From: a phage
Reading direction: 5' to 3' (one strand)
DNA: 64,000 nt
Assembly: GCA_021081985.1 (NCBI GenBank)
Contig: GCA_021081985.1_3639.1
How positions within the stretch are numbered: position 1 is the first letter of the stretch; each line of letters opens with the position of its first letter. Under the pieces are notes generated by a model. That model was given only the letters and a program-made list of their open reading frames with translations. It ran no database searches and had not been told where the DNA came from. The translations under genes and the position numbers were made by a program. Below are positions 1,930 through 64,000 of this stretch, piece after piece.

Positions 1930-4653
1930 TTACAATGCACAACTCTCGCAGTACGGATCTTCAACTGAACTATCTGCAATCAAAGGATAGTTCTTTTTAG
2001 TTTCTTCCTCAGCTTGTTTCTTCGCGTGAAGTTCCGCTGTCAAGGAATCACCAGCACCAACCTTAGAATTTAGATAGTACCACGTTTTCATACCCACTTT
2101 TGTTGCTTTGATAAGATATCCTAACTGCTCTTTCATAGAAATCTTACCATCTTTTTGTTTGGTGTAATCAAGGTAGAGATCTGCACTGATCGCCTGCCCA
2201 GTAAATTTCTGGAACAGGGCATAAATATCTATCAGATCATTTGTTGGTGTATCCCAAGCAGATGTGTAGTAATCTTTTAATTTTTCATAATCAGGAACGA
2301 TAAAAAGAACCTGACCTTGAGGTGATTTTTTAAAGATTACATGATCACGAACAGGGTATATACCGTTTGTTGTGTTTGTTGCCAAAGACGAACTTTCGTT
2401 CGGCATGTAGGCTTCCAACACACTGTTTCTGATCCCGCCAAAATCAACAATCTCCTTGCGTAAGGACTCCCAATCCTGTTTGAGTGTAGGATCCTTCACC
2501 ACACTATCAATCGTTTTGTTGTAAGTATCAATCGGTAGCCAGCCAGATGGGTATTTTGTTTTACCAATCCACTCACAAACACCACGTTCTTTAGCTAACC
2601 GTAGACTTGCCTTATGAAGGCTGTAGCTGTGCAATTCAGCTAAATCATGTACCAACTGTTTGCTCTCAGGAGAACCATAAGGAACTCTATGTGTCGCAAT
2701 ATAATGCGCCACGTTTGTGATGCCAACACCAATAGACCTACGTTTTTTAACTGTACTCTCCATATTTTCATACGGATAGGTCATGATATCCATCACGTTG
2801 TCAATCATGAGTACGGTATAGTATGCCACATCTTCATACTCTTCTTGTTTAACTCTGCCAGCAACCAACGATGCTAGGAAGCATAAAGCAACTTCACCAT
2901 CTTCAGCATCATGCTCGAAAATGTTACGCATGTCTGAATAGCCTTTTGTTGGAAGAGATATTTCTTGGCACTGCCCAGTTAGCAAGCCATTAAACACTCC
3001 CATATGGCGTTTTGGCTCAGAAAAACAGTAGGTGTCGTCAATACGCCCATGGTCTCTGATCTCAACAACAACTTCTTTTTGTCTGGCTACCGTGTTTTGG
3101 TCTGGCAAGTTTAATTCAATAAGCTGATCCCCAACTTTTAAATCACAAGCCATTTTCTCCAACGGGTTATCTTGTAAATAAAACCTGTGATAGGGGGTAC
3201 AAGTAAGCTCTTTACCTGTACTCGTCACTACAGTAATGAGTTTCCTATTACTACCTGTTTTTCTGACAATAACCTCTGACCACTCTTCTCCATTCCACAC
3301 CTCAACAATACGATCTTTAAGGTCGGAAATGGTTTGATACCCATCCTTAGTGAGAATTTTCGTTTCTGGCGCAACACACAAATTGCTTGAATAAATAATT
3401 TCCTTAAATGGGGTGTGTCTATTCATCTCGTCAGTCCAGTAAACATAAAGTCTACCAGTTTCTGTACGCTGGGTAATTATCTCCATTGCCAAATCTCTTG
3501 CCTTAATCCAAGTTTTTGGAATAGAAGCATCCTTGGCAATCTTATCAACTTCAGAGTCAAACTCCTCCATTGTCATAGTGAACATCCCATCATGGAGTTG
3601 TGGGGCATCTTTATAAGATACCAGCATCCAATCTAGGTTTTTCGCAACACGATTGACAAAAGATTTGTTAATACCAACGGAATAATCCATTGTGTTAATT
3701 CGCTTAGATGTCACAGTCATAGGGTTACGTAAGCGAATTAATTCATCAATTTGTGGATCAAGAGCTAAGAAAGAAACTGTTGCTGAACCACCTCTGGACT
3801 GTTGCCTATTTTCTTTTACCCCAGCATCAATACCACGATAATAAGGTAGTTTACCCATATGCTTGATTGTGTTTCCTCTAACACCATCACCAATAGAGCG
3901 AGATGCTAGATAATAACCGATACCAGCTTGATTAACAGTCATCGTATATGCAACTTCTCGTGCAACACCGATGGACTTAGCTGTATCGTCTGCCTTAATT
4001 ACACAACACGAAGCATATCCTGTTTTCCCGGTACGAAGCCCGTTAAGGTATGGTGTCGGGGCGTTGATCTTAAGATCAGACAAATATGTGTACAATTTTG
4101 TCACATCTTTAATACGACGAGCCTTGGGCATATTCTTCATAACTGCCATTGCCATCCCCATAAACATCATCTGCGGGGATTCAAAAAGGATGTCATTAAC
4201 AGCGTCCTTAATACCGTACTTATCACGGAACTGTTTCAATACAGCATACCCATAAGACAGATCTTTACTATGGTCGATAACAGCTTCTAATGCTGTTAAC
4301 TCCAAGCCTGTGTATTTCATATCTTCCCAATAGCCTGAATCAACCATACGGTGATAGAAATTTGGCAAACTTGGGATTTTTGTGAACCCACCAAAGGCTT
4401 CTTTATAAATCTGCCCGACTAAAACTCTACCAGCCATCCGTGCATGTGCTTCATCTTTACGGCTAATACATGCATCTATAATAGCTTGGTTCACTTCTTT
4501 GGTTGTGCAACCATCATATAGTCTTTTATATGCGTCAAGAGCAATGTGTGACCAGTTGCCGTTGCCATCATCACCAAAAATGGCAGCTTTGTTAAGGCGT
4601 TCAGGGTCGAATACTACCTCTGACCCATCGCTTTTAATAACTTTAGTAATCAA
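1930..4653 (-). CDS. nrdA: ribonucleotide reductase large subunit NrdA, interrupted by a mini-intein
   Basis: 907 aa; active-site SSNL-C..QEISLPTK matches the E. coli SNLCLEIALPT region once residues 426-561 are removed; remaining extein about 770 aa. Confidence 0.85.
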   Translation of the reverse strand: MITKVIKSDGSEVVFDPERLNKAAIFGDDGNGNWSHIALDAYKRLYDGCTTKEVNQAIIDACISRKDEAHARMAGRVLVGQIYKEAFGGFTKIPSLPNFYHRMVDSGYWEDMKYTGLELTALEAVIDHSKDLSYGYAVLKQFRDKYGIKDAVNDILFESPQMMFMGMAMAVMKNMPKARRIKDVTKLYTYLSDLKINAPTPYLNGLRTGKTGYASCCVIKADDTAKSIGVAREVAYTMTVNQAGIGYYLASRSIGDGVRGNTIKHMGKLPYYRGIDAGVKENRQQSRGGSATVSFLALDPQIDELIRLRNPMTVTSKRINTMDYSVGINKSFVNRVAKNLDWMLVSYKDAPQLHDGMFTMTMEEFDSEVDKIAKDASIPKTWIKARDLAMEIITQRTETGRLYVYWTDEMNRHTPFKEIIYSSNLCVAPETKILTKDGYQTISDLKDRIVEVWNGEEWSEVIVRKTGSNRKLITVVTSTGKELTCTPYHRFYLQDNPLEKMACDLKVGDQLIELNLPDQNTVARQKEVVVEIRDHGRIDDTYCFSEPKRHMGVFNGLLTGQCQEISLPTKGYSDMRNIFEHDAEDGEVALCFLASLVAGRVKQEEYEDVAYYTVLMIDNVMDIMTYPYENMESTVKKRRSIGVGITNVAHYIATHRVPYGSPESKQLVHDLAELHSYSLHKASLRLAKERGVCEWIGKTKYPSGWLPIDTYNKTIDSVVKDPTLKQDWESLRKEIVDFGGIRNSVLEAYMPNESSSLATNTTNGIYPVRDHVIFKKSPQGQVLFIVPDYEKLKDYYTSAWDTPTNDLIDIYALFQKFTGQAISADLYLDYTKQKDGKISMKEQLGYLIKATKVGMKTWYYLNSKVGAGDSLTAELHAKKQAEEETKKNYPLIADSSVEDPYCESCAL
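2971..3378 (-). mobile_element. mini-intein in nrdA (about 136 aa, no endonuclease domain, C-terminal Gln)
   Basis: Insert starts CVAPETKILT (block A-like), has LTCTPYHRF (TxxH block B-like) and DTYCFSEPKRHMGVFNGLLTGQ followed by +1 Cys; Cys codon at 3378-3376 checked. Confidence 0.6.
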
Positions 4654-5430: not shown

Positions 5431-5459
5431 ATAATATGTATTTTTATTAAATTTGTCAA
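5431..5459 (-). promoter_or_regulatory. sigma70-like promoter (TTGACA-17-TATTAT) on minus strand
   Basis: Minus-strand reading TTGACAaatttaataaaaatacaTATTAT; -35 overlaps the stop of the upstream gene. Confidence 0.45.
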
Positions 5460-7342
5460 CCTGCCACAACATTGTTGGGAACTAGTTGGCGGTATTGTAC
5501 CCACCCACGTAGATTTCCTGACCACATATTTCCTTTTCTATCCATATGCGTCACACCGTCACTTGCCTGTCCATCCCACCACAATGAAGCCTCATTCTCC
5601 AACATAGGTGTTGCAACATGCTCAAAAGGAGATGCGTGTACCTTATCACCACTTGTTAGCTTTTTATAGATATCAAGGGCTTTATCCTTAGTGTTGTTAA
5701 GCACGCGATACGAGACTTGTGCACAACAAGACACAGAAATAGCAATTGCCTCATCAACACGTAGCATCACAGGCTCGTTGTTCTCATCTAAAACACAATA
5801 CCCATGAAATTCTCCAACATCCTCACCAACATCAACTGTGTAGAGGTGCTCTACATATGGGGTGTGCCACTGACCAGGTTCTAATAGCTCAGGTACAGAC
5901 TCATCCACAGCTTGTTTCATGAGAGATGCTAGTTTATGGATCGTCGGGTCTGCATCTCCATCTGCACGAAGATGGAAAAAATTATTCCAATCCGTAGCAG
6001 TAACAACAGTTTTCATCCTCTGGAACGGTTCCAGTAAGCGATTTGCCACCTGCTTGTGATAGCCAGCTTGTGAGTATGCTTCGGCAAAACGTGATGCACT
6101 TAAAGCCGCCAATTGCCACCAATCCTCTGGGGAATATCCAGCATCTATTTCAGCATTGTGATTACCATCATCTTGCATACCAGGTTTATTCTTACCAAAT
6201 TGAACAGGCATGGCAGGATTTTTTCGTACTTGCTCAATCATCTTAGAGATTGGAATTGCTCTGCTGCTCATAGCATTCCTGCTAAACAGTCTATGCGTCA
6301 TAAGTTCACAGTTCCCACTGATAAATACGACACCTTCCCTTCGAACAACCACGTAGGAGGTGTCTACACTTACACAATACACCTTCCCTACATAGTCCTC
6401 ATACTCGAAGATATCTTTATCCTGCCTTAGACTAATGTAGTTCGTAACTTTAAATGAGCATTTATACAGAGAGCCATACTTACGAATATTCACAGAGTCA
6501 CCATTCAGGTGAGCTAACACCTGAATTTGGTTAATCAGTGTTTTGGATGTGGTGTTATACTCCATGTTGTCAATATTGCCGTCTGAGAGTAGCAATGCTC
6601 TCTTAAATAAGCGGTACTGCTCCTTATTTAACCCTCTGATATATTTTGGTAATTTTTTCTCCCCTTCTCCAGTGTAACATGCTTCTGTTAATGGGTTTTT
6701 ATTAAAACTGATAACTATATCGTCCCCATATATAGAGGTGCTATATTCGTATCCACACTCTTCAAGGATACGTGTAACTTCCTGTACCTTCCGAGACTTT
6801 TTAAAATGGAAGTTTGCCTTATTCCCCTTTTCTGGGGTATGTCCATCAGCAGCAAACCAAACACAAAATTCAATCTCCGCATCAGAAAGGTCACACTTTG
6901 CATTCATTACCCCAGACTGCTCGATACGTAATGTTCCATAGTCTCCTACAAGTTCCTCAGCAAGAATCGTCTTACTTACAAATTTACCCCCAGTAGTCCT
7001 TTTTTTCGTAAGGACTCGATGCTTGTCTGTAACAAGCATGGGGAACTTCTTCTTGTTCAGAGATACCATCCGATGACGACCTTCGTTCTCTATGTGTGCG
7101 GATGGGGTTACAAAGCTAATAGCTCCTGTTGTATCATCATACTGTGCTACCTTAGCATTGAGTGCAAATACTTCCCTGAAAGATCTGAACTCTGGCAATT
7201 CCGAGTTAATCTGACTGAGTATTTCTGTCTTCTCGTCAAAGCAGTGAATAATGCGGGGGTATTCCAACTCAAAAGTGGTAATTCTGATACCTTGTGGGGA
7301 AATACTGTCAGCTACGATATGTACAGAGATCTGATTATTCAT
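5456..7342 (-). CDS. thyX: ThyX-like flavin-dependent thymidylate synthase interrupted by a LAGLIDADG-type intein
   Basis: Extein junction TTFELEYPRIIH/CELMTHRLFSRNAMSSRA resembles the ThyX motif region; ANRLLEPF..TVVTATDWNNFFHLRAD resembles the ThyX R..LP..T..N.R..HF.LRAD segment. N-extein is only 33 aa and there is a long C-terminal extension. Confidence 0.55.
   Translation of the reverse strand: MNNQISVHIVADSISPQGIRITTFELEYPRIIHCFDEKTEILSQINSELPEFRSFREVFALNAKVAQYDDTTGAISFVTPSAHIENEGRHRMVSLNKKKFPMLVTDKHRVLTKKRTTGGKFVSKTILAEELVGDYGTLRIEQSGVMNAKCDLSDAEIEFCVWFAADGHTPEKGNKANFHFKKSRKVQEVTRILEECGYEYSTSIYGDDIVISFNKNPLTEACYTGEGEKKLPKYIRGLNKEQYRLFKRALLLSDGNIDNMEYNTTSKTLINQIQVLAHLNGDSVNIRKYGSLYKCSFKVTNYISLRQDKDIFEYEDYVGKVYCVSVDTSYVVVRREGVVFISGNCELMTHRLFSRNAMSSRAIPISKMIEQVRKNPAMPVQFGKNKPGMQDDGNHNAEIDAGYSPEDWWQLAALSASRFAEAYSQAGYHKQVANRLLEPFQRMKTVVTATDWNNFFHLRADGDADPTIHKLASLMKQAVDESVPELLEPGQWHTPYVEHLYTVDVGEDVGEFHGYCVLDENNEPVMLRVDEAIAISVSCCAQVSYRVLNNTKDKALDIYKKLTSGDKVHASPFEHVATPMLENEASLWWDGQASDGVTHMDRKGNMWSGNLRGWVQYRQLVPNNVVAG
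6311..7243 (-). mobile_element. intein with LAGLIDADG-like endonuclease domain in the thyX-like gene (about 311 aa)
   Basis: Starts CFDEKTEILSQ, ends VYCVSVDTSYVVVRREGVVFISGN followed by +1 Cys; internal VWFAADGH and LLLSDGNID motifs; boundary codons checked at 7243-7241 and 6313-6311. Confidence 0.55.
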
Positions 7343-21566: not shown

Positions 21567-22122
21567 ACAGAGTCACATAGTGACTTGTGACAACCCGAAT
21601 CCATGATTGAGATAAACACACAGAGACAAACCTGTAGGGTTTGTTGATGTGGGTTTATCTCAGAATGGCTCATGAGGGTTAGATGATCACAAGCTATCAG
21701 CGCAGTGAGCATCTTACACACTCACGTATTGCCTGAAGAGTCTCATCGACTCATGCTTTCAGGCAAAACACTATGAACTCTATGATTCGAAATCATCGAA
21801 CCATACGATTCGACTCAATCGAATCATATCAACAAAAATATTTAAAATCAAGTCTTGACATTCTTCAAGACTTAATGTATTTTAAATAAATTTTATATAA
21901 TATATTATTATATATAATACGTAGTATTATATTATATTAAATTATATTATATAATTTATATTATATTAGATCATATTAAATAGATCATAGTATTATAATA
22001 CGTAGTATTATATTTAATAGATCTTATAAGTTAGTTTAATTTGATCAGTTAGTATTGTGTCCCCAAAACGGGGACATACCCATGTCCCTGAAATGGGGAC
22101 ATATGGGAGGGGTTGACATTGT
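21567..22122. promoter_or_regulatory. divergent intergenic control region (AT-rich repeats, palindromes, promoter-like boxes)
   Basis: 556 bp non-coding between opposed gene blocks; IR gagataaac..gtttatctc (about 21610-21662), IR tgcctgaa..ttcaggca (about 21731-21766), gattcga/cgaatcat repeats, IR aagtcttga..tcaagactt with TTGACA (21850-21873), AT-rich attatat repeats (21880-22050), paired GTCCC..GGGAC hairpins (22058-22102), TTGACA at 22113-22118. Confidence 0.45.
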
Positions 22123-53457: not shown

Positions 53458-55830
53458 ATGGCGAATATCATAGTAACTAAAACCGTAAATGCTGTCGAGT
53501 GGTCTGTAGATCGCACCAGTTACGGTCGTGCAATGAAAGCTATAAAATCCCTGAAGAAGGAATGGGAAAAGACTAACAGAGCTTTCACTTCTAATAAAAG
53601 TAATCCGGCAGCAATTTATAAACGTTCTGCGCAAGAGGCTCGTCTTGTAGCTAAAAGATTACACCAAACTGAACGTGCAGAGCAAGCAAAATCTACGGCA
53701 CATGCTATTGCAATGGCAAAAAAGGAAGCTCGTGCTCGTGAACAAATAGCCAAAGTTGAGAGCGCGAGAAGAAAGCAAGCAGTAGCCAGACTAACAAACA
53801 GAAGAACACCTGAAGAACAAAAAGAATATAATGCATTAAAATCAAAGTTGAAGCAGATGGAAAAAACAGGTTCTGGATATGTAACAAATCCAGAAATATC
53901 TGCTGCCCGTCAAGCAAGATTGCAGCAAGAACTTGCAGCAAGAAAGTCTTCAGGGTCTGCCTCTGGTATTGTTGGGGATCCTAATAGTCGTCACGATCCA
54001 AGTCTTGTGGCTGCCCAGAACTCTGCTATGGAACGCTATCATAAATCTATTCCGAAAGAAAAAACAGCGGATGAGATTAAGGCAGAAAAAGATGCTAATA
54101 AGAAGAAAGAAAGAGAAGCGTTAAGAGCAGAAAGGATAAAGGCTGCAAAACAATCAACAATTGCTAATGCTGCTGTAAGACTTCGTGCTAAGTATGGTGA
54201 TGATTTCAGGTCTAAAATTAAAGGTTATGATGATCTGGAAAAGAGATTTATGCAAAGCCAGACTATGAGAGCTTCTAATTTCCGTGCTGAATTGGCAGCA
54301 ATGGAAACAGGACTCCGCAAAGCTAAGGCAAATACACTATCTCTTGATCAAGGATTGAAAAACCTTCGTAGCACATTAATTAGTGTTTCTGCTGCATACG
54401 GAGCTTTTAATGCTGCCGCAAGTGTTGTGAAAACAGGACAATTCTTTCAAGGCATGGAAGCTACCATGTTAATGGTTTCTGATGACTCAGAAGAAGCAGC
54501 GAAAAGAATACAGTTTGTTCGGGAGCAATCTTACAGATTGGGTTTGAATTTAAAAACCGCCGCCCAAGGTTATACCCAAATGTCCATATCTGCCAAAGGT
54601 GTTTTGAGCAAGGCGCAAAATGACGAACTGTTCAAAGGTTTCTCAGAATATGCTACTGCACTTCAGGTTGATCCTGTAAAATACCAGCGTGGTATTACCG
54701 CTATCCAACAAATGATGGGTAAAGGTCAGATCATGGCTGAAGAATTAAAACAGCAGTTAGCCGAGGGTATTCCTGGTTCTCTTGATGTATTCCTTAAAGC
54801 CACACAAGAAGCATTCAATGATTCATCTATAGACATTGCAAAATTAATGGATATGATGAAGAATGGAGAGCTAAAGGCTTCAAAAATTCTTCCTTTGGTC
54901 GCTAAGTATTATGCCGAGGCTGCAAGAAAAGGTGGTGCACTTACCAAGGCACAACAAAGCAACCGTGTTGCTATGCAGCGTTTACAACAAACATGGATGA
55001 ACTTTCAAAATAAGATATTTGAAAGTGGATTTGGGGATGAATTAACTAAAACGTTTAATGATTTGTCTCACATGTTGGATGCTAAAGGACCGTTAGCTGA
55101 GAAAGTTGGACAATTTACTTCTGGATTCATAAAGGGCTTTATGGATATCGCACATACGATATCTAATGTCTGCATTTTTATAAATGCAGAATTAAACATG
55201 TATATCCCACAATGGATAAAGAAAAGTGAGACATTCCAAAAAGCGACTAACTGGGTAGGTTGGGGTCTCGGTGCTCTATTCTTCGCGACTTCCTTGGTTA
55301 GAGTATTCAGAATCTTGGCTAAAATTGCTGGAATAACGGGAACATTGAAAGTATTGAAGGATATCTTTGGTGATGGTGACGATAAACCTAAAAATCCAAG
55401 AAAACCAAGAATACCAAAATTCCTGAGACGCGGTAAAGGTTGGCTCGGTTTAATAGCAACAGCCGCTATAGCAGCAACAGGTTTGGATGTTGATGACTCC
55501 GAAGAACCAAGTTCTGACCAAATACCTACAAAATCAATGCAGGAAGATTTTGTTAAGAACAGGAGTATTTCAGGCGGCCTTTCTCAATGGTGGGATAGTT
55601 TATGGGCTGGGCATATGCAGGATAAAGCCAACTATCTTCAATCCCATAATCTAATGCCTGGCGGATCTGCTACAGGTCAAACTGTAGCTCCTATGGTTAT
55701 TCCTACCGAGCCTGTCAGTGGTGAAATAACAATTAAAATAGATGCTGGAGAATTACGGAATATGATTGACCAGCAAATAGAGACAGCTAATATGGATAAC
55801 ATTAATCTTATTCTTGCTGTCCCTCAATAA
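53458..55830 (+). CDS. tail tape measure protein
   Basis: 790 aa, extended Ala/Lys/Glu-rich helical N-half and hydrophobic segment, located after the chaperone pair. Confidence 0.7.
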   Translation: MANIIVTKTVNAVEWSVDRTSYGRAMKAIKSLKKEWEKTNRAFTSNKSNPAAIYKRSAQEARLVAKRLHQTERAEQAKSTAHAIAMAKKEARAREQIAKVESARRKQAVARLTNRRTPEEQKEYNALKSKLKQMEKTGSGYVTNPEISAARQARLQQELAARKSSGSASGIVGDPNSRHDPSLVAAQNSAMERYHKSIPKEKTADEIKAEKDANKKKEREALRAERIKAAKQSTIANAAVRLRAKYGDDFRSKIKGYDDLEKRFMQSQTMRASNFRAELAAMETGLRKAKANTLSLDQGLKNLRSTLISVSAAYGAFNAAASVVKTGQFFQGMEATMLMVSDDSEEAAKRIQFVREQSYRLGLNLKTAAQGYTQMSISAKGVLSKAQNDELFKGFSEYATALQVDPVKYQRGITAIQQMMGKGQIMAEELKQQLAEGIPGSLDVFLKATQEAFNDSSIDIAKLMDMMKNGELKASKILPLVAKYYAEAARKGGALTKAQQSNRVAMQRLQQTWMNFQNKIFESGFGDELTKTFNDLSHMLDAKGPLAEKVGQFTSGFIKGFMDIAHTISNVCIFINAELNMYIPQWIKKSETFQKATNWVGWGLGALFFATSLVRVFRILAKIAGITGTLKVLKDIFGDGDDKPKNPRKPRIPKFLRRGKGWLGLIATAAIAATGLDVDDSEEPSSDQIPTKSMQEDFVKNRSISGGLSQWWDSLWAGHMQDKANYLQSHNLMPGGSATGQTVAPMVIPTEPVSGEITIKIDAGELRNMIDQQIETANMDNINLILAVPQ

Positions 55831-55834
55831 TTTG

Positions 55835-55862
55835 AAGGGGCTTTTGCCCCTTTTTGTTGTTT
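55835..55862 (+). terminator. intrinsic terminator after tape measure gene
   Basis: AGGGGCttttGCCCCT followed by TTTTGTTGTTTT. Confidence 0.55.
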
Positions 55863-55909
55863 TAATAAAAGATTTATGATAAAATCATACAATAACAAGT
55901 GAGGTTCTT

Positions 55910-56776
55910 ATGGCTTCAGTTTCCAATAACCAGTCAAAACCGCAGCAAGGTAAAGCTACAGCAAATGTCGAAAGAAAGGTAAGTAATGCACAAGAAACAA
56001 GCTCTGGTGTTAAGTATACACTTTTTGCCAGCGGTTTGAATTATGGTGGTCGTAATATTGAACTGAAAGATAAAAATTATACAGACGATTTAGCTATAAT
56101 TTTTGATGTTGTTGAAGAACACTCCTATACGAGAACTGTGGATAAGACTTCTTATGCAGTTGAAGATAGGGTTAAGTTTAGTGATCACGGTGTAATAGAA
56201 GATGGGAAATTCTCTTTTAGTGCAAGGGTTAGCTCATCACCACTTTCAATTATTCAGTTTAATTACATAGATAAAGATACCGATAATCAGAACCCCGCTG
56301 CTTCAAAAAGACCAGAAAAAGCTCTGGAAGTGCTTGAGCGCCTCATAGACCAAAGACAAATTGTAACTCTTGTGACAGAGGATAGAATCTTAGATAATTA
56401 TATCCTTACTTCAATGGAGGCATCTCGTAGCAATTCAGATGGTGCGGCATTAGTTTTTCAATTAGAGTTTACAGAGTTCCGTACATTCACATTAGGAAAG
56501 ACTGTTTTAGCCACCATCTACACAGATCCTAAGAAGTCAGGGAAAACAAAACAGAAAGGTTCTGTTCAATCATCCGCTACCCAACAAGAAGTTGATATTA
56601 TGGCTAGAAAAACATTATACTCTGGAGACCAAGCTGATTTCTGGAAAAACTGGTCAGAGAGCAGACACCATAATTTAGATGATGTTACTTCTCTACAGAA
56701 AGTTGGGTCATATACACTTACTCCGTCTGGGGAATTTAAAGATCTGGATGGGAACCCTATGAAGTTTGGTAAGTAA
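55910..56776 (+). CDS. hypothetical tail/baseplate protein
   Basis: 288-aa ORF in baseplate region. Confidence 0.3.
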   Translation: MASVSNNQSKPQQGKATANVERKVSNAQETSSGVKYTLFASGLNYGGRNIELKDKNYTDDLAIIFDVVEEHSYTRTVDKTSYAVEDRVKFSDHGVIEDGKFSFSARVSSSPLSIIQFNYIDKDTDNQNPAASKRPEKALEVLERLIDQRQIVTLVTEDRILDNYILTSMEASRSNSDGAALVFQLEFTEFRTFTLGKTVLATIYTDPKKSGKTKQKGSVQSSATQQEVDIMARKTLYSGDQADFWKNWSESRHHNLDDVTSLQKVGSYTLTPSGEFKDLDGNPMKFGK

Positions 56777-56786
56777 GGAACTATAG

Positions 56787-57137
56787 ATGTCTAAAATAAC
56801 TTTTGTCTGGGATATAGATGGGTTTGCTGATCAAACAATGAGAGTTGTCTTGGACAGTAAAACATACGAGATGAGATTTCAATGGAATGAAAGGGATGAA
56901 TCTTGGCTTGTGTATTTTGGGGATGTTGGCTCCACACCCACGATATCTTTTAAATTAACAACAATATTTGATATCTTTGAGCCGTTCAAATACCTTGAGA
57001 ATATACCATCTGGTCAATTGTCTGTTTTTTCTTTTAAACAGTCTACAAAACGTGTCGGAAGATACAATATCGGATTTCTTGCAGATCTCCAACTTCTTTA
57101 TTCATCTCCTGACGAGGAGTTAACAGGTGAGGAGTAA
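56787..57137 (+). CDS. hypothetical tail/baseplate protein
   Basis: 116-aa ORF. Confidence 0.3.
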   Translation: MSKITFVWDIDGFADQTMRVVLDSKTYEMRFQWNERDESWLVYFGDVGSTPTISFKLTTIFDIFEPFKYLENIPSGQLSVFSFKQSTKRVGRYNIGFLADLQLLYSSPDEELTGEE

Positions 57138-57142
57138 TAATT

Positions 57143-58141
57143 ATGCCATCTTACAGAACAAGAACATATAAACTAACAATAGGTAAACCAGTATACATTG
57201 GAGAGAAGCCAACGAATATTTCAGATTATACAAATCAGAATAATAAGGATGCTTATGTTGTAAGTAACGAGTACGGTTCTGCAAATATAGAATTTGAAGT
57301 TAAAAAAGACAACTCAAAAGACCCTAACAAAGGTTACGTAACAATTTACAATTTAAGTGATGAGACCGTTAGCTATCTAGATGCTAATCAGAGAGAATCT
57401 CTAGCCATAGTGTTGGAGGCTGGGTTTGATGGTGAAAACCAAATGTTATTCTCTGGGACAGTAGAGTTTGTTCAGGATAAATGGGATGGAAATACTCGCC
57501 AAACAAAAATGATCCTTGGTGATGCAACCACAAATATTATGACTGCTAAAACAGCAAGATCATATAAAAAAGGAACACCTTTAGATACTGTTCTTAATGA
57601 TTTAATTTCTGATTTAAAATTACCTATCGGAAAAGTTGTTAAATTCGGGAATAAGACTCTTCAACAATCAATGGCATTCACAGGGAATGCTGCTAATAAT
57701 CTTGAGAGGTTAGCTAGAAATACAGGTTCCACATTTAGTGTCCAAGACGGTGCTGTGTACTGGACAACCCAAGGTAAAAGATTTAAGAACGCTGTTTTTG
57801 AAATAAGCGCAGAATCTGGGATGCATGATTCTCCAACCCCACAGAATCCAGAACCTGCTAAAAGAAGACTTGAGAAAGAAAGCAAAAAGAAAAAAAGGAA
57901 ACCTAAACCCGGTACGGATACAAGACCAAGTAGAGCAAGAATAAAAGAAGACGCTGGGTTGGTTGTAACCACAGAGCTTAATGGGGCAATTATTCCTGAG
58001 AGCACAATTTATTTGAAGAGTCATAAATATACAGGTTTTTATAAAGTAGTATATTTGACACACAAAGGGCAACTTGAAGGTGGAGATTGGATTTCCGAAA
58101 TTGGCCTTGCTGAAGCCCGTGGTGGTGTTGTGGAGGAATAA
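57143..58141 (+). CDS. hypothetical tail/baseplate protein with Lys-rich linker
   Basis: 332-aa ORF; KRRLEKESKKKKRKPKP low-complexity segment. Confidence 0.3.
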   Translation: MPSYRTRTYKLTIGKPVYIGEKPTNISDYTNQNNKDAYVVSNEYGSANIEFEVKKDNSKDPNKGYVTIYNLSDETVSYLDANQRESLAIVLEAGFDGENQMLFSGTVEFVQDKWDGNTRQTKMILGDATTNIMTAKTARSYKKGTPLDTVLNDLISDLKLPIGKVVKFGNKTLQQSMAFTGNAANNLERLARNTGSTFSVQDGAVYWTTQGKRFKNAVFEISAESGMHDSPTPQNPEPAKRRLEKESKKKKRKPKPGTDTRPSRARIKEDAGLVVTTELNGAIIPESTIYLKSHKYTGFYKVVYLTHKGQLEGGDWISEIGLAEARGGVVEE

Positions 58142-58842
58142 TGGCAGCAATTCAAAGAATGGACGCAGCATTGAATCAGTGGTTTGCGAGACAAGCCAGA
58201 GACATCCATACAGGATTAAGGGCGAAGGTTGTTGAGGTTGATTATAGCATACCCTCAGCAACTGTACAACCTTTGGCATCCACCAATTTCGACGACGGAA
58301 CAGTAGATGCATATCCTGCTGTTTTCGACGTGCCACTTTCGATGCCAAGCGCAAACGGCGGTAAGGCAAGACTTACATTGCCTGTTAAACCAGGTGATAT
58401 TGTCGGGTTATCTTTTTCAGAGAGAAATGAGTCAGATGCTAATGACTTAACGACACACGGTTTATTTCCTGGGTGGTCAATCATTGGTGTTCACAGTGAT
58501 GGGAATGCAATGGTTATCGACCCAAACAATGTGGAATTATGGAACGACCAAGTTCATTTCTCTCTTGCCCCTGAAGGAGATTTTGTATTAAAAGGCCCAG
58601 TGGGAACATTTACTGTTGATAAAGATGGCAAAATGTCTTTTACCAACGGGTCTGCGACATTGACAGCGAAGCCTGATGGGAATATAGAGATGAATGGGGC
58701 GAAGGTGACACCAGATGGGAATATTGTGACAGCTAGAGGTGTAAGTCTAAATGATTTCTACGACTGGTTTACAAGACACACACATCACTATATTTGGACA
58801 GACCCATCTGGTGAAAGTGACACAAATGTCCCTAACAAATAA
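58141..58842 (+). CDS. baseplate spike / gpV-like protein (putative)
   Basis: 233 aa, Gly/Thr-rich beta-type C-terminus, position before wedge-like genes. Confidence 0.4.
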   Translation: MAAIQRMDAALNQWFARQARDIHTGLRAKVVEVDYSIPSATVQPLASTNFDDGTVDAYPAVFDVPLSMPSANGGKARLTLPVKPGDIVGLSFSERNESDANDLTTHGLFPGWSIIGVHSDGNAMVIDPNNVELWNDQVHFSLAPEGDFVLKGPVGTFTVDKDGKMSFTNGSATLTAKPDGNIEMNGAKVTPDGNIVTARGVSLNDFYDWFTRHTHHYIWTDPSGESDTNVPNK

Positions 58843-58851
58843 GGAGTGTAA

Positions 58852-59379
58852 ATGGCAACTCTCTATTCTGATTTATTAATGGATCCTGTTACTGGGGATC
58901 TCGATGTCTCAGAAGGTCTTAAACTGATAGAATCAAACCAAGTTAGTCTTCGTCAACGTTTGTGGCTAAGGTTTAATGTCTGGCAAGGAGACTGGTATTT
59001 CGATGAGACATTCGGATTTCCATATCGAACATATATTAGCAAGAAGGTTATGAAGACTGTACTTGATAATAAGATAAAAGAGGTAACAAGGCAGGAACCG
59101 GACGTTTTGGAAATAACTTATTTTCATTCCACAATGGATTCAGGGACAAGAAGCTATCAAGCATATTTTGAAGTGACAACCAAAGAACAAGAGGTTGTTA
59201 GGATTGCCTTTATAGGGCAGGATGAGTATTATTATCCAGAAGCTGATGCAGGGACAACAATCCTTTGCGATGATGATGGCTGGATACTTTGGGCTAACAA
59301 ACTCTATTACCTCATCAATTTCCGTTTACCTCGTACAGGTGACGCAACTTGGTGGAATAAGTGGGCAACTAATGAATAA
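58852..59379 (+). CDS. baseplate wedge protein (gp25/GPW-like, putative)
   Basis: 175 aa; N-terminal YSDLLMDPVTGDLDV resembles the GPW/gp25 family start. Confidence 0.4.
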   Translation: MATLYSDLLMDPVTGDLDVSEGLKLIESNQVSLRQRLWLRFNVWQGDWYFDETFGFPYRTYISKKVMKTVLDNKIKEVTRQEPDVLEITYFHSTMDSGTRSYQAYFEVTTKEQEVVRIAFIGQDEYYYPEADAGTTILCDDDGWILWANKLYYLINFRLPRTGDATWWNKWATNE

Positions 59380-59383
59380 TGGA

Positions 59384-59412
59384 AAGGGGCTTATGCCCCT
59401 TTATTTGTGTTT
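59384..59412 (+). terminator. intrinsic terminator
   Basis: AGGGGCttatGCCCCT followed by TTATTTGTGTTT. Confidence 0.55.
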
Positions 59413-59433
59413 ACTATTTATAATTAAGACATA

Positions 59434-59461
59434 TTGTGGTAAAATAACCACATCTTATAAT
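59434..59461 (+). promoter_or_regulatory. sigma70-like promoter (TTGTGG-16-TATAAT)
   Basis: Perfect TATAAT -10 at 59456-59461 downstream of terminator; inverted repeat GTGGTaaaataACCAC in spacer. Confidence 0.45.
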
Positions 59462-59484
59462 AATTTACAAGAGGAGGCATAATC

Positions 59485-60978
59485 GTGGCTGCTCAATTTG
59501 GATTAAATGACTACGGTTTTTCAATTCCGTCCCTTGATGACTTGATAACAGACACTAAGCAATCCCTTATTAGAGCTTTTGGTGAAAACTTTAACACCCA
59601 AACTAACTCTGTTGTTGATAAGATCACTACTATTTTCAACGAAAGGGAATATCAATTAATTCTTTTGGCTGCATCTATTTATGCAGCACAAACGCTAGCA
59701 GGGGCAGAAGGTATATATCTTGACGAGATTCTTGGTCGTCGTGGCATATTCCGTAGAGGAAAAACCAAAGGGTCCGGTACTGTTCAAATGGTAATTAATA
59801 ACACAGTGCCGTATAACATGATTTATGATGCCGCAACATACAGTATTGACGGTGGAAATTTTGTGTTAACAGAAGATACCGCCGTTGCTGGCAATATCAT
59901 AGCGCAGCAAATAACCAATCAAGATTGGGTTCTTGGTAACTACACCATCCAGATAGTTAACCAGAATGATGGGACAACAAAGACACTGAACCTATCTCTG
60001 AAAAACAAAACTCCAAACAGTACCGAATTAAACTCTTTTATGATGGCTATGAAAGAGTTTATAGTCGATAATACAACTTATCTGAATGAAGATAAGATCT
60101 TTATCGAATCTTCTTCAGGAAGTATGTTTATAGGTTATGATCAAAATAAGAAAATGATTGGTCTGAATGCCCCTGTGGACTTTAGAACATCACCCCTACT
60201 TGGTCAAAGAACAATAACCATGGATGTTATTGCTGTTGAAGCAGGAGAAATATCTAGAGAAGCAGAGACAGTTACTAACATAAGCCCAACACCAAGTGGT
60301 TTTGTTAGCTTGACGAACAGGGAAGCATTCAGTGATGGTACAGATGTCGAGACAGATACAGAATATAAGCTGAGAGCCTCAAATACAACATCCGCAGGTG
60401 CAGCCGCAACACGACCTGCTATTGTTTCTGCTGTTTTAAATGTGCCTGGTGTAAGTAAGGTTAAAATTTTCTCCAACAATACTGGTGTGACAAACGAGTA
60501 CGGTGTTCCAGCGTATAAGTTTGAGACAGTAGTCTATGGTGGGGCCACAGAAGATATCAGTAAGGCACTTTATAATACTATAGCACTCTCTAATGCTACT
60601 TATGGTGATGTATTCTATGATGTGACTACAGAAGATGACCAAGTAGAAAGAATTTATCATAGCAAGGCAAAAGTAAGGCAACTTGAAATTCGTGTCAGAT
60701 ATAAAGGTAAATTACTATCCCTTACAGAACAGAACACGATCAGGGATTCCCTTAAAGCTGTTGTTGATCCTCTTAACATTGCAGATACGTTGTACAATAT
60801 TCAACTTGTTTCTGCTGTGGGGTCATCCATCTCATCAGGCAGATTTACTCAACTTTTAGTAGATGTCAAAAACAAAGGTGAGCCAGACAGTACGTACACT
60901 AATGATGATATTGTTGCTACTATGACAGAAGTTTTCGCTGTAGAGTTAAATGACATAACTTTCCAGCAAGTTCTTTAA
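59485..60978 (+). CDS. baseplate J-like protein (putative)
   Basis: 497 aa, GTG start with GAGGAGG RBS, in baseplate gene order. Confidence 0.45.
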   Translation: MAAQFGLNDYGFSIPSLDDLITDTKQSLIRAFGENFNTQTNSVVDKITTIFNEREYQLILLAASIYAAQTLAGAEGIYLDEILGRRGIFRRGKTKGSGTVQMVINNTVPYNMIYDAATYSIDGGNFVLTEDTAVAGNIIAQQITNQDWVLGNYTIQIVNQNDGTTKTLNLSLKNKTPNSTELNSFMMAMKEFIVDNTTYLNEDKIFIESSSGSMFIGYDQNKKMIGLNAPVDFRTSPLLGQRTITMDVIAVEAGEISREAETVTNISPTPSGFVSLTNREAFSDGTDVETDTEYKLRASNTTSAGAAATRPAIVSAVLNVPGVSKVKIFSNNTGVTNEYGVPAYKFETVVYGGATEDISKALYNTIALSNATYGDVFYDVTTEDDQVERIYHSKAKVRQLEIRVRYKGKLLSLTEQNTIRDSLKAVVDPLNIADTLYNIQLVSAVGSSISSGRFTQLLVDVKNKGEPDSTYTNDDIVATMTEVFAVELNDITFQQVL

Positions 60979-60988
60979 GGATGTTATT

Positions 60989-61666
60989 ATGGCAGACTAT
61001 TTAAAAGATGTAAATCATATACACACACTGCCAGATTTCGTTGAGGGAGGTATTGATTATCTCCCTGGTGATTTTCTGAAAGAGAAAAAGAATCTTGTAA
61101 AATTTCTGACAATATACCTTGAAAGATTGAAAGCTATTGATGAGATGCTTGTAAAGCTATCAGAAGGTAGATTATTAAGGAATGCCGCAGGGCTGAATCT
61201 TGATGAGATAGGTAATCAGGTTGGTATTGAGAGGAACGGGCTTGATGATGCCACCTATAGGGCAATAATAATGATCTTGGCTGCTGGATCTGCAAGACAC
61301 GGTACAAGACCAGAGTTTATTGAAACATTAGATCAACTGTTTGGTGTTGGAAATTTTACAACTTACAAAGGGGATAATTACCGTTTTGACGTAAACGTAT
61401 CGAAAAGCTGTTTCGACTTAGCAGCAGCGATAGATGAGATACTTGACCTATTACCGTTACCAACTCACCTTAGACTAACAGAGTCTGTGGGTTTGGCGTT
61501 TGGCTTTAAGAATGACAAACATGCACTTGGATTCGGATCTGTGGCAGAGAAATCAAGAACTGGGGATGGCGGTTTAGCCCATCTAGTTTACGTACCGGAT
61601 CCACCAAGAACATCGGATGACATCCTTATTTATGTTGACAATATCTCTGTAGATGCAACAGAGTAG
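60989..61666 (+). CDS. baseplate/tail protein (putative)
   Basis: 225-aa ORF between J-like and fibre-like genes. Confidence 0.35.
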   Translation: MADYLKDVNHIHTLPDFVEGGIDYLPGDFLKEKKNLVKFLTIYLERLKAIDEMLVKLSEGRLLRNAAGLNLDEIGNQVGIERNGLDDATYRAIIMILAAGSARHGTRPEFIETLDQLFGVGNFTTYKGDNYRFDVNVSKSCFDLAAAIDEILDLLPLPTHLRLTESVGLAFGFKNDKHALGFGSVAEKSRTGDGGLAHLVYVPDPPRTSDDILIYVDNISVDATE

Positions 61667-61678
61667 AGGAGACCACAT

Positions 61679-63742
61679 ATGGCAGAGGCTATTTTCACAG
61701 CCAGAAGAGAAGATGACTCTGTAGCTGTCAGCTTTGACTATGAAACAATACCAAACACAGCTATTGCTGGAAGAGATTATACACCCAAGGTAGGTACGGC
61801 AACAATTCCTAAAGGGGAAAAGTCTGTACAGATACCTGTGGAGATAAAACAACATCCTAAAAACTCATTACCAAGAGAATTTACCTTAAAAATGAGTAAT
61901 CCGTCTTTTGGTGCAAGGCTAGACAGGCTGGCTTCCAGATGTGTTATTAGCACCAAGGAGGATATGTCTGAGTTGGGGTGGGGAACAAAAGAAGAGAAAA
62001 TGTTTCTACCTAAATATTGGACAATTGATTCTCAACCCACAGAAAGTTGCTCTATAATATCTAATGGTAATATACTTACAGCTTATATGACTAATAGAAC
62101 TGTAAGCGGTTTAGCAGGGGTTATTTGGAGCACAAAAGATAAGTATGATCATAAAGGGATCTCTTTTCAAGATCACACAGATCTTCGAAACGCTAAGCTG
62201 TGGTTCGATATAGAGTTGGGCGACGGAATGCCTGATTTCAATAATGAGAAATTGACCCCGACATTAACCCTTAAACTTTTAGATGGGGCGACCCATTATA
62301 TCCCTCTGTACGCTTATGCTGAAAATATCAGCGAGGATTATAAAAGAGCCACAATCAAACTTGATTTTTCAAATTTAAAATCTGGCCCTGATGTGAACGT
62401 GCCAGTGGATACCTCTCAAGTGGATCAGTTTTTCTTTTCTATGATATCTGAGAAGTATGCAGAAGGAGAAGATGTTGTCCCTAAAGAAAATCAGAACCTT
62501 ATGTTGAAAATAACTCTTAAAGAGCCTGATACAGGCTATACAATGATGAGAGTTAATAATTTGACAATTCCTGCACATGATGTGCGTATGTGTACATCCT
62601 ATGATGACATGTATAACCTGACACCTGAACGAGTGGTGGACAACTGCTTGAAACTTGGGTACAGGGATATGATAAACCACTATAATGGTATGTCGCATTA
62701 TTACGAGTTCTCTTGGGAAAGCTCCGCATGGAAACTGAACAAAGATGTCCCTGTCAATAATGCAACCCTACAATGGATGAATAACTATTTCGCACTGACA
62801 CGAGCAAATGGTTATAAGGTTATCAATTCTATTAGTTTTGAGTTGATGAGCACTGTATGTCCGGCAGAATGGGTGCAGCATGATTGGAATGATGCATTGG
62901 CTGAAACAGGCTATACACCTCCTAGTTGGGTATTATCACCTAATATTAATGAGGGTATGCAATATATCCAAAGTGTGATAAATAAAATAGCAGCTACGTG
63001 CGAACAAGTTAACCAAGTTGTTATCATTCAGATAGGAGAACCTTGGTGGTGGTATAATACAGCTACTAACTTACCTTGTGTCTATGATTATACTACAAAA
63101 GTTCGTTTTAATGAAGAGACTGGATTGTATGCTCAAGACATGGGAACAATTTATGACTTTAAGACCGGAACACCCTATGATGAGTATGTAGATTTTCTAA
63201 GACAGTGCTTAGGGGAGCGAGTGGTAAAATTCGGTGCTGATCTTAAAAAATCTTATCCTAATGCAAAAATAACACTTTTACCGTTTTTACCATCCATTAT
63301 TGGTAATGGTATTATGGAAAAGATAAATTTCCCTAGTGGTAGTTATACACCTGAGAATTTTGATTTCTATTGCTCCGAGTGCTATGACTGGTTACTTCAA
63401 GGAAAAATGGAAAAATCATTTCAGGCTATCACCATTCCGCGAGATGTCTTAAAATTTGAAGAAGATAAGATACATTATCTGGCAGGATTTGTTCCAGATG
63501 AAGGGCTAGCACCATTATACGGATTTGACCCTAATTCTAATTATAGAGAATATCTTTGGAAAATGATTATAGGGAACATCGTTCTTAATGAGTTTAAGTT
63601 TCCAGGTATTTATCAATACATATGGGCGTATCCACAAGTAATGCATGATTCTATAACAGTGCACAACTCTCAATCCGCAGTCTTTCATATGGGGCATACA
63701 GCATTGAAAGGGTATTTAAAAGATACCCCACCAGAAGTTTAA
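61679..63742 (+). CDS. tail fibre / receptor-binding protein with Calx-beta-like N-terminal segment (putative)
   Basis: 687 aa; AGRDYTPKVGTATIPKGEKSVQIPVEIKQ...EFTL resembles a Calx-beta-type motif; distal position in tail module. Confidence 0.4.
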   Translation: MAEAIFTARREDDSVAVSFDYETIPNTAIAGRDYTPKVGTATIPKGEKSVQIPVEIKQHPKNSLPREFTLKMSNPSFGARLDRLASRCVISTKEDMSELGWGTKEEKMFLPKYWTIDSQPTESCSIISNGNILTAYMTNRTVSGLAGVIWSTKDKYDHKGISFQDHTDLRNAKLWFDIELGDGMPDFNNEKLTPTLTLKLLDGATHYIPLYAYAENISEDYKRATIKLDFSNLKSGPDVNVPVDTSQVDQFFFSMISEKYAEGEDVVPKENQNLMLKITLKEPDTGYTMMRVNNLTIPAHDVRMCTSYDDMYNLTPERVVDNCLKLGYRDMINHYNGMSHYYEFSWESSAWKLNKDVPVNNATLQWMNNYFALTRANGYKVINSISFELMSTVCPAEWVQHDWNDALAETGYTPPSWVLSPNINEGMQYIQSVINKIAATCEQVNQVVIIQIGEPWWWYNTATNLPCVYDYTTKVRFNEETGLYAQDMGTIYDFKTGTPYDEYVDFLRQCLGERVVKFGADLKKSYPNAKITLLPFLPSIIGNGIMEKINFPSGSYTPENFDFYCSECYDWLLQGKMEKSFQAITIPRDVLKFEEDKIHYLAGFVPDEGLAPLYGFDPNSNYREYLWKMIIGNIVLNEFKFPGIYQYIWAYPQVMHDSITVHNSQSAVFHMGHTALKGYLKDTPPEV

Positions 63743-63757
63743 GAAGGAGATACTTTT

Positions 63758-64000
63758 ATGGCTACACCAAGTATACCAATCGAGATTTGGGCAGCGGGGG
63801 ATGTAATTCTCCCTAATACTCACGGGGAGAATAAAATAAGACCTATTGACGACCTTTGGTTAAAAGGTTGGGATATGGGAGAAAAACCAGCTTGTGAAGA
63901 ATTTAACTATGTTCTTCATATGATGACAAGTTGGATAAAATATGTTACAGGGGATCAAATTCCTGAATTAGATACAAGATTTTTAAGAAGAAGTGAAAAT
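63758..64000 (+). CDS. hypothetical tail protein, 5' part (runs off window end)
   Basis: ATG with AAGGAGA RBS; open to window end (MATPSIPIEIWAAGDVILPNTHGENK...). Confidence 0.3.
   Translation, partial: MATPSIPIEIWAAGDVILPNTHGENKIRPIDDLWLKGWDMGEKPACEEFNYVLHMMTSWIKYVTGDQIPELDTRFLRRSEN

Follow-up and report, generated by a model that had tools for sequence, protein, structure and literature searches.

Inteins have been reported in the flavin-dependent thymidylate synthase ThyX of both cells and viruses. The Ter ThyX intein of Trichodesmium erythraeum splices in model constructs (PMC3620165), 21 thymidylate synthase (TSase, COG1351) inteins are known from actinobacteria and cyanobacteria (PMC4760082), and ThyX inteins occur in cluster C1 mycobacteriophages (PMC5050341) and in actinobacteriophages generally (bioRxiv 10.1101/2025.01.02.630785). 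Here, we describe an insertion of this type in a stretch of phage DNA of 64,000 nucleotides (NCBI GenBank assembly GCA_021081985.1, contig GCA_021081985.1_3639.1; hereafter the window, meaning the whole stretch analysed), whose relatives among the Vequintavirinae are rich in inteins and homing endonucleases (PMC7344957). The insertion is an intein with a homing endonuclease in a phage ThyX gene, a selfish element that is real but of an ordinary kind. The gene product is very probably the precursor of a phage enzyme resembling flavin-dependent thymidylate synthases (ThyX/Thy1 superfamily, permuted PHROG 85 subfamily), with a class-1-type intein of 311 amino acids (aa) between His33 and the residue aligned to R74 of the Thermotoga maritima enzyme. 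Like the published ThyX inteins, it lies in or adjoining the active centre of a flavin-dependent thymidylate synthase; unlike them, it is found not in a canonical-order ThyX of cells or actinobacteriophages but in an apparently permuted ThyX from phages of Gram-negative bacteria. While the kind of element is already well known, the insertion site is probably previously undescribed.

Among deposited sequences, the ‘putative thymidylate synthase’ UOX40189.1 of Escherichia phage vB_EcoM_TH18 (Vequintavirinae) contains the same intein at the same site and shows 98.2% DNA identity to the gene, which is also matched by three partial sister records of TH18. The same intein and site are found, at 44–47% identity over the full length, in Acinetobacter phage vB_AbaM_B9 (P0030) and in Candidatus Macondimonas diazotrophica WP_135282613.1 (P0049). 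No intein is annotated in the records for these three, the UniRef label for P0049 being ‘DOD-type homing endonuclease domain-containing protein’. The closest known inteins are the endonuclease-bearing class 1 elements PI-SceI (yeast VMA1), PI-PfuI, PI-PkoII/PI-TkoII and the Pho and Tli VMA inteins, from which the present one differs by a sequence identity of only 10–16%, a penultimate Gly, a Cys at position F:4, another host and site, and a compact size of 311 aa.

An earlier note, made from the letters of the window and a list of its open reading frames (ORFs), had proposed that a ThyX-like ORF of 628 aa is interrupted by a LAGLIDADG intein of 311 aa at 6311–7243, and these bounds are base-exact on translation: the minus strand of 6311–7243 reads CFDEKTEI...VFISGN, preceded by ...EYPRIIH and followed by CELMTHRLFSRNAMSSR. 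The parts of the precursor are as follows, allele counts referring to the 56 interrupted homologues introduced below.

5456..7342, minus strand: precursor ORF, ThyX-like protein with intein, 628 aa plus stop codon (5456–5458).
7244..7342, minus strand: N-extein, aa 1–33 (MNNQ...YPRIIH), matched by the alignments and hhalign to strand beta3 of canonical ThyX and to the first part of its ThyX-motif helix.
6311..7243, minus strand: intein, aa 34–344, 311 aa, with a predicted splicing (HINT) domain that is interrupted by a homing-endonuclease domain of the LAGLIDADG type.
7220..7243, minus strand: intein block A, CFDEKTEI, with the nucleophile Cys1 (aa 34), present in 56/56 alleles.
7013..7036, minus strand: intein block B, LVTDKHRV, with the T-x-x-H motif formed by Thr105 and His108, each in 56/56 alleles.
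6836..6868, minus strand: first LAGLIDADG motif, FCVWFAADGHT, with the putative catalytic Asp166; Asp166 and Gly167 in 56/56 alleles, helix modelled at 154–166.
6788..6811, minus strand: endonuclease block D, FHFKKSRK, with conserved Lys/Arg; K182 in 55/56, R184 and K185 in 56/56 alleles.
6572..6607, minus strand: second LAGLIDADG motif, FKRALLLSDGNI, with the putative catalytic Asp254; Asp254 in 54/56 and Gly255 in 56/56 alleles, Pfam LAGLIDADG_3 match at aa 241–288.
6311..6382, minus strand: intein blocks F and G, VYCVSVDTSYVVVRREGVVFISGN, with Cys323 at F:4 and the end Gly343-Asn344, without a penultimate His; C323, G343 and N344 each in 56/56 alleles.
5459..6310, minus strand: C-extein, aa 345–628, beginning with the +1 residue Cys345, followed by the ThyX motif ELMTHRLFSRNAMSSR; Pfam Thy1 match at 346–485.
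5618..5743, minus strand: apparently permuted segment, AISVSCCAQVSYR...HASPFEH, aa 534–575, matched to the N-terminal helices and HxSPFEH of canonical ThyX by profile against PDB chains, hhalign and re-permutation tests.

The ORF stands in a block of nucleotide-metabolism genes, with nrdA, nrdB and nrdD downstream and an exonuclease gene upstream. Base composition gives no sign of a foreign origin for the intein, its GC content being 40.6% compared with 39.4% for the N-extein and 44.1% for the C-extein.

The insertion is clean. The extein spliced in silico (317 aa) matched 1036 phage records by tblastn, with a coverage of at least 80% in 1018 and typically in one uninterrupted piece; uninterrupted homologues are found in Salmonella phage SSE121 (69% identity), Klebsiella and Escherichia myoviruses (~60%), rV5 (55%), ICP1 (55%), and PAK_P1-like and N4-like phages. 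The family alignment comprised 96 sequences, 56 interrupted and 40 uninterrupted. Across the 40 intein-less proteins the insert corresponds to a single clean gap with the junction YPRxxH/[SAGQ]E[LF]MTHR (here and below, a slash marks the insertion point), and the 56 interrupted homologues, of 590–670 aa, read H/CFDxxTE...SGN/[CS]E at the same column. This clean gap rules out that the insert aligns as an ordinary domain in related proteins, an outcome which the earlier note had named as fatal to its proposal. Furthermore, the interrupted architecture is found independently in 4 deposited records of phages and in over 50 proteins from metagenomes. The loci of the extein family in relatives include L004 1501–2478 and L005 486–1469.

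The residues needed for splicing and for DNA cleavage are conserved. Cys1, the Thr and His of block B (VTDxHR), the Cys at F:4 of block F (VYCVxVP), and the Gly and Asn of block G (ISGN) are invariant in all 56 interrupted alleles, and the +1 residue is nucleophilic in every one of them (Cys in 54, Ser in 2), being S, G, A or Q in the 40 empty alleles. As for the endonuclease, the Asp of motif 1 (WFxxDG, here VWFAADG) is found in 56/56 and that of motif 2 (ALLxSDG, here ALLLSDG) in 54/56 alleles, and block D (FHFxKxRK) is conserved. An AlphaFold model of the insert from its single sequence was unusable, with a predicted local distance difference test score (pLDDT) of 34; with the 96-sequence alignment as input, the entire precursor was modelled at a pLDDT of 91.6. 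Foldseek searches against the PDB retrieved the PhoVMA and TliVMA inteins on top (E 1.7e-13), followed by PI-PfuI, PI-SceI, PI-TkoII, I-Tsp061I and I-DmoI. As modelled, the insert has a HINT fold on both sides of a LAGLIDADG endonuclease domain, and the latter is predicted to be of the two-motif, monomeric type.

Judged by its sequence motifs, the intein is assigned to class 1. A class 3 intein, considered for the Cys at F:4 and for the top mini-intein structural match, was rejected. Class 3 inteins have no N-terminal nucleophile and carry instead the triplet Trp (B:12), Cys (F:4) and Thr (G:5). In the present element Cys1 is invariant, and the residues that we take to be B:12 and G:5, placed together with F:4 according to the intein block nomenclature, are Val and Ser; because of the invariant Cys1 and the lack of a Trp at B:12, class 1 is preferred despite the Cys at F:4.

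The extein belongs to the ThyX superfamily and has a ThyX fold. A search of the spliced extein with Pfam Thy1, the check suggested in the earlier note, gave 39.7 bits (27.5 for the unspliced protein, cutoff 24.8) and so bore out the homology, with a match limited to profile positions 59–191; PHROG 85, thymidylate synthase, matched with an E of 5e-108. In a phmmer search against PDB sequences the spliced extein found nothing at E≤1, ThyX chains being reached by the family profile only. The hhalign comparison with T. maritima ThyX (in a sequence whose segments 20–67 and 160–201 agree with PDB chains) aligned ITTFELEYPRIIH-C-ELMTHRLFSRNAMSSRA of the spliced extein across the ThyX-motif region and set the intein between the equivalents of A73 and R74, the +1 Cys taking the position of R74. 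The insertion point is thus four residues ahead of the RHR motif, which reads THR here, and its description as lying at the active-site motif was a fair one. The ThyX motif RHRx7S(x)R reads THRLFSRNAMSSR, in which the His, the second Arg, the Ser and the last Arg are conserved and the first Arg is replaced by Thr in 95 of the 96 members; the other stretches singled out at first sight (ELMTHR..SSR, ANRLLEPF and FFHLRAD) are present, all in columns that are invariant in the family. The equivalents of H53, H79, R80, S88, R90, R147 and R174 are fully or almost fully conserved in interrupted and uninterrupted members alike, as expected if splicing restores a working enzyme. Thymidylate synthase catalysis by the extein is predicted from sequence, the family bearing this function as an annotation.

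The layout of the extein deserves a closer description. The short N-extein of 33 aa and the long C-terminal region, regarded in the earlier note as unusual, are real but standard in more than 1000 phage records, and both appear to result from a circularly permuted ThyX domain rather than from a C-terminal extension. The canonical segment order, in which the N-terminal helices and HxSPFEH precede the RHR helix, is not found, since the N-terminal segment lies near the C-terminus. Two separate stretches of the family profile aligned, in swapped order, to chains of T. maritima ThyX, profile positions 447–488 to chain positions 172–213 and profile positions 530–579 (SasccAqvSYr...vHaSpfeHqatp) to chain positions 32–79, and local hhalign paired extein 21–173 with T. 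maritima ThyX 61–199 (E 1.5e-4) and extein 223–269 with 20–64 (E 3.8e-4). When a tandem-duplicated extein alignment was used, hhalign failed to chain both ThyX segments into one, ~70 residues lying between them; the evidence for the permutation consequently comes from these two alignments, taken separately, and from re-permutation tests. In these tests the C-terminal segment (WHTPYV...HASPFEH) was placed ahead of the N-terminal strand, with the moved segment shuffled as a control, and gave the following scores.

Re-permuted extein: Thy1 50.7 bits, span 13–191 of 191; TIGR02170 56.9 bits.
Core segment alone: Thy1 34.7 bits, span 60–191 of 191; TIGR02170 38.9 bits.
Moved segment shuffled: Thy1 35.0 bits, span 53–191 of 191; TIGR02170 39.6 bits.

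When the same operation was applied to SSE121, rV5 and three members from metagenomes, Thy1 rose from 34–39 to 52–56 bits in 5/5, so that the gain was 16–18 bits in all six members. The family has in addition ~45 extra conserved residues at the C-terminus (WSGN.RGW.QYRQL). Taken together, sequence comparisons suggest that the PHROG 85 family is a circular permutant of canonical ThyX. A limited search of the literature found no description of a permuted ThyX, the papers retrieved dealing with circularly permuted genomes or using the term in an unrelated sense, and the novelty of the permutation is claimed tentatively.

At least three sites of intein insertion exist in the permuted family. Site a is that of the present intein (H33/S34). 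Site b lies directly after THR (...MTHR/CLVGGTEL...VVHN/CFSRNA) and is occupied by inteins with an HNH-type endonuclease (P0075, P0090, P0107, P0111). Site c falls inside HxSPFEH (H569/A570 in the present numbering), with the reading ...H/CYDxxTEVLT...SGN/[SC]SPFEH (P0077, P0081, P0087, P0120), and one protein of 930 aa with 12 cluster members (P0123) has the inteins of sites a and c together. The site-c inteins are homologous to the present one from end to end (23–27% identity; E down to 2e-26 in the permuted family) and share with it the C[FY]DxxTE[IV]L start, the SGN ending, the preceding His and the LAGLIDADG type, but they are inserted within HxSPFEH, whereas the present intein stands ahead of the THR motif. 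Two ThyX proteins of canonical order (P0147 and P0148, Thy1 162–178 bits) carry a related intein at ...H/CYD...SGN/SSP[FL]E, which is site c; an intein at this site in both canonical and permuted ThyX provides independent support for the homology of the permuted segment. On these grounds we propose a joint reading, plausible although rather less probable than its contrary, in which this family of more than 1000 records is a circular permutant of ThyX, with the break between HxSPFEH and the next strand, and a single lineage of LAGLIDADG inteins occupies the HxSPFEH site of canonical and permuted ThyX and also, across the break, a second site, the present one, some genes having both.

The distribution of the intein is patchy and at odds with the relatedness of the exteins. 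The 16 closest exteins (58–68% identity) are all without intein, the exteins of the closest inteins (P0001 and P0002, ~65%) are just 54–57% identical, and intein and extein identities are weakly correlated (Spearman 0.24). Compared with TH18, the intein shows 5 substitutions and one Lys-codon indel (an extra Lys in TH18) in 933 nucleotides, and the exteins 26 substitutions in 954 nucleotides (Fisher p 1.8e-4), a low divergence compatible with a recent exchange of the intein, mosaic recombination being among the other possibilities. Phage Av-05, which ranks next in closeness over the structural region, has no match to the thyX locus. A word-indexed search with the intein alone gave only 3 proteins, and an exhaustive phmmer search was needed, which returned 2283 representative clusters at E≤1e-3; the best 16 (E≤1e-30) have the same ThyX site, and weaker full-length matches have glycosyltransferase, metallophosphoesterase, NAPRTase, primase and GTP cyclohydrolase I hosts. 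One such protein is P0121 (512 aa), a GTP cyclohydrolase I interrupted by a related LAGLIDADG intein with 26% identity over the full query.

The course of events at this locus can be outlined on the basis of established intein chemistry. After translation, Cys34 would attack the peptide bond that precedes it, the N-extein would move to the +1 residue Cys345, and cyclisation of Asn344 would free the intein, leaving a native peptide bond in an enzyme of 317 aa, whose Cys at the junction would stand in place of the Ser, Ala, Gly or Gln of intein-less alleles. The free intein, or the precursor, would serve as a homing endonuclease by means of its LAGLIDADG domain with two motifs, cutting the intein-less thyX of co-infecting related phages at the site coding for YPRIIH/SELMTHR, and repair from the intein-bearing copy would spread the element. 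The reconstructed candidate target is TTTGAGTTGGAATACCCCCGCATTATTCAC/TGTGAACTTATGACGCATAGACTGTTTAGC, which real empty alleles match at 45/60 (SSE121) and 47/60 (rV5) positions.

Several observations weigh against this picture of an actively splicing and homing intein in a thymidylate synthase. The penultimate residue is Gly343 in 56/56 alleles instead of the usual His (many alleles have a His three residues ahead of it, where the present gene has Phe340), and the residue at F:4 is Cys instead of the usual Asp, so that the splicing chemistry is not fully canonical. The comparison of the insert with intein and LAGLIDADG profiles, also suggested in the earlier note, had a mixed outcome: PHROG profiles of intein-bearing ribonucleotide reductase (RNR) and PhoH proteins match it, but Pfam LAGLIDADG_3 (PF14528) gives 22.1 bits, marginally under the gathering score of 22.5 (it matches 19 of the 96 family members at E≤0.01, 3.9e-6 at best), and Pfam Intein_splicing gives no match to the protein. 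As for the extein, the equivalog cutoff of TIGR02170 thyX is missed (43.6 vs 87.9 bits, E 2e-11), a Thr replaces the first Arg of RHR (R78), and Ser or Cys occupies the position of T. maritima R74. Finally, a near-isogenic intein-less allele, which would be a direct sign of recent homing, is absent from the phage collection.

The alternative that survives best accepts the intein and supposes that the extein is a permuted flavoenzyme of ThyX fold with another substrate or product, for example in the methylation of another nucleotide or in a step of modified-pyrimidine synthesis. We consider it unlikely: the remaining positions that contact deoxyuridine monophosphate and flavin (those listed above from H53 to R174) are invariant, phage thymidylate synthases usually lie in nucleotide-metabolism clusters such as this one with nrdA, nrdB and nrdD, and every deposited homologue is annotated as such. 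The literature searched contains no experimental work on synthesis of deoxythymidine monophosphate or on thyA complementation for this phage family.

Decidedly improbable is a second alternative, that the insert derives from an intein but, decayed or domesticated, no longer splices, leaving a ThyX-like protein permanently interrupted and probably inactive or in another role. The missing penultimate His, the Cys at F:4 and the subthreshold scores of the Pfam intein models speak for it; against it, the residues for all four splicing steps are invariant in 56 alleles that have diverged to ~45% intein identity, and the catalytic residues of the extein are equally conserved with and without the intein, which is expected only if splicing restores it. 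The Gly-Asn ending is itself invariant and is thus a trait of the lineage rather than a mark of decay. A penultimate His is common in inteins but not obligatory. Splicing in its absence has been documented (Chen, Benner and Perler, 2000; reference 51 of PMC5050341).

That the long ORF is an artefact, either a fusion by misassembly or frameshift or an RNA-level group I intron with an in-frame endonuclease ORF, is hardly credible, since even if related phages are rich in introns and free-standing endonuclease genes (PMC7344957) and the nrdD and DNA polymerase genes of TH18 are split, the reading frame is unbroken across both junctions, HINT sequence stands on both flanks of the endonuclease and is predicted to fold as a complete intein, and the architecture recurs independently, as described above.

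Other selfish elements are found in the same region. The nrdA ORF at 1930–4653 (class Ia RNR alpha, 907 aa) contains a mini-intein of 136 aa, CVAPETKILT...VFNGLLTGQ, at 2971–3378 on the minus strand, directly ahead of the catalytic Cys of NLC-x-E; it ends in Gly-Gln, not His-Asn, and scores 26 bits with Pfam Intein_splicing, under the cutoff. The NrdA of TH18 (771 aa, NLCCEI) has no intein and nearly identical flanks, so that the nrdA intein is polymorphic even among very close relatives. In Salmonella phage SSE121, where gene order is the same and thyX is uninterrupted, a free-standing HNH endonuclease gene (L004 2465–2896) overlaps the 3′ end of thyX; a different selfish element thus targets the same gene neighbourhood. 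According to the TH18 annotation (L002 2496–5143, L003 21354–24484; window 21600–45000), nrdD and the terminase large subunit are each in three pieces and the DNA polymerase is in two with an ORF between, and these split nrdD, DNA polymerase and terminase genes probably represent further introns, inteins or endonuclease insertions.

Concerning genome layout, the window is collinear with 112.6–133.9 kb of TH18 (ON075799.1) up to position 21677, where the TH18 record ends. From 21678 it matches TH18 from 79819 to 57476, reversed, and window positions 54475–64000 match TH18 from 48000 to 38466, again reversed. The sister phages of TH18 were deposited as separate records of 54 kb and 79 kb, and the TH18 record may join two contigs in arbitrary order or orientation. 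Within the window, GC skew changes sign at ~22 kb.

The intein described here is a further case of insertion into the catalytic helix of an enzyme of nucleotide metabolism in a virulent phage, and, together with the polymorphic nrdA intein, it fits the view that the DNA-precursor genes of phages are the main playground of homing elements. TH18 with its sister records and phage B9 are annotated as having a ‘thymidylate synthase’ of ~630–650 aa without mention of an intein, so that trees and structure predictions made from the unspliced sequence will be distorted. The compact size of 311 aa, the invariant Gly-Asn end and the Cys at F:4 could be of interest to intein engineers. Most worth following up are the permuted architecture of ThyX and the intein lineage with its two sites: a permutation confirmed structurally would explain why these proteins score poorly with ThyX models and why their function is still only ‘putative’, and, if the joint reading of permutation and two sites is true, the family would offer a natural system both for the retargeting of a homing endonuclease within one gene and for the tolerance of a tetrameric flavoenzyme to permutation.

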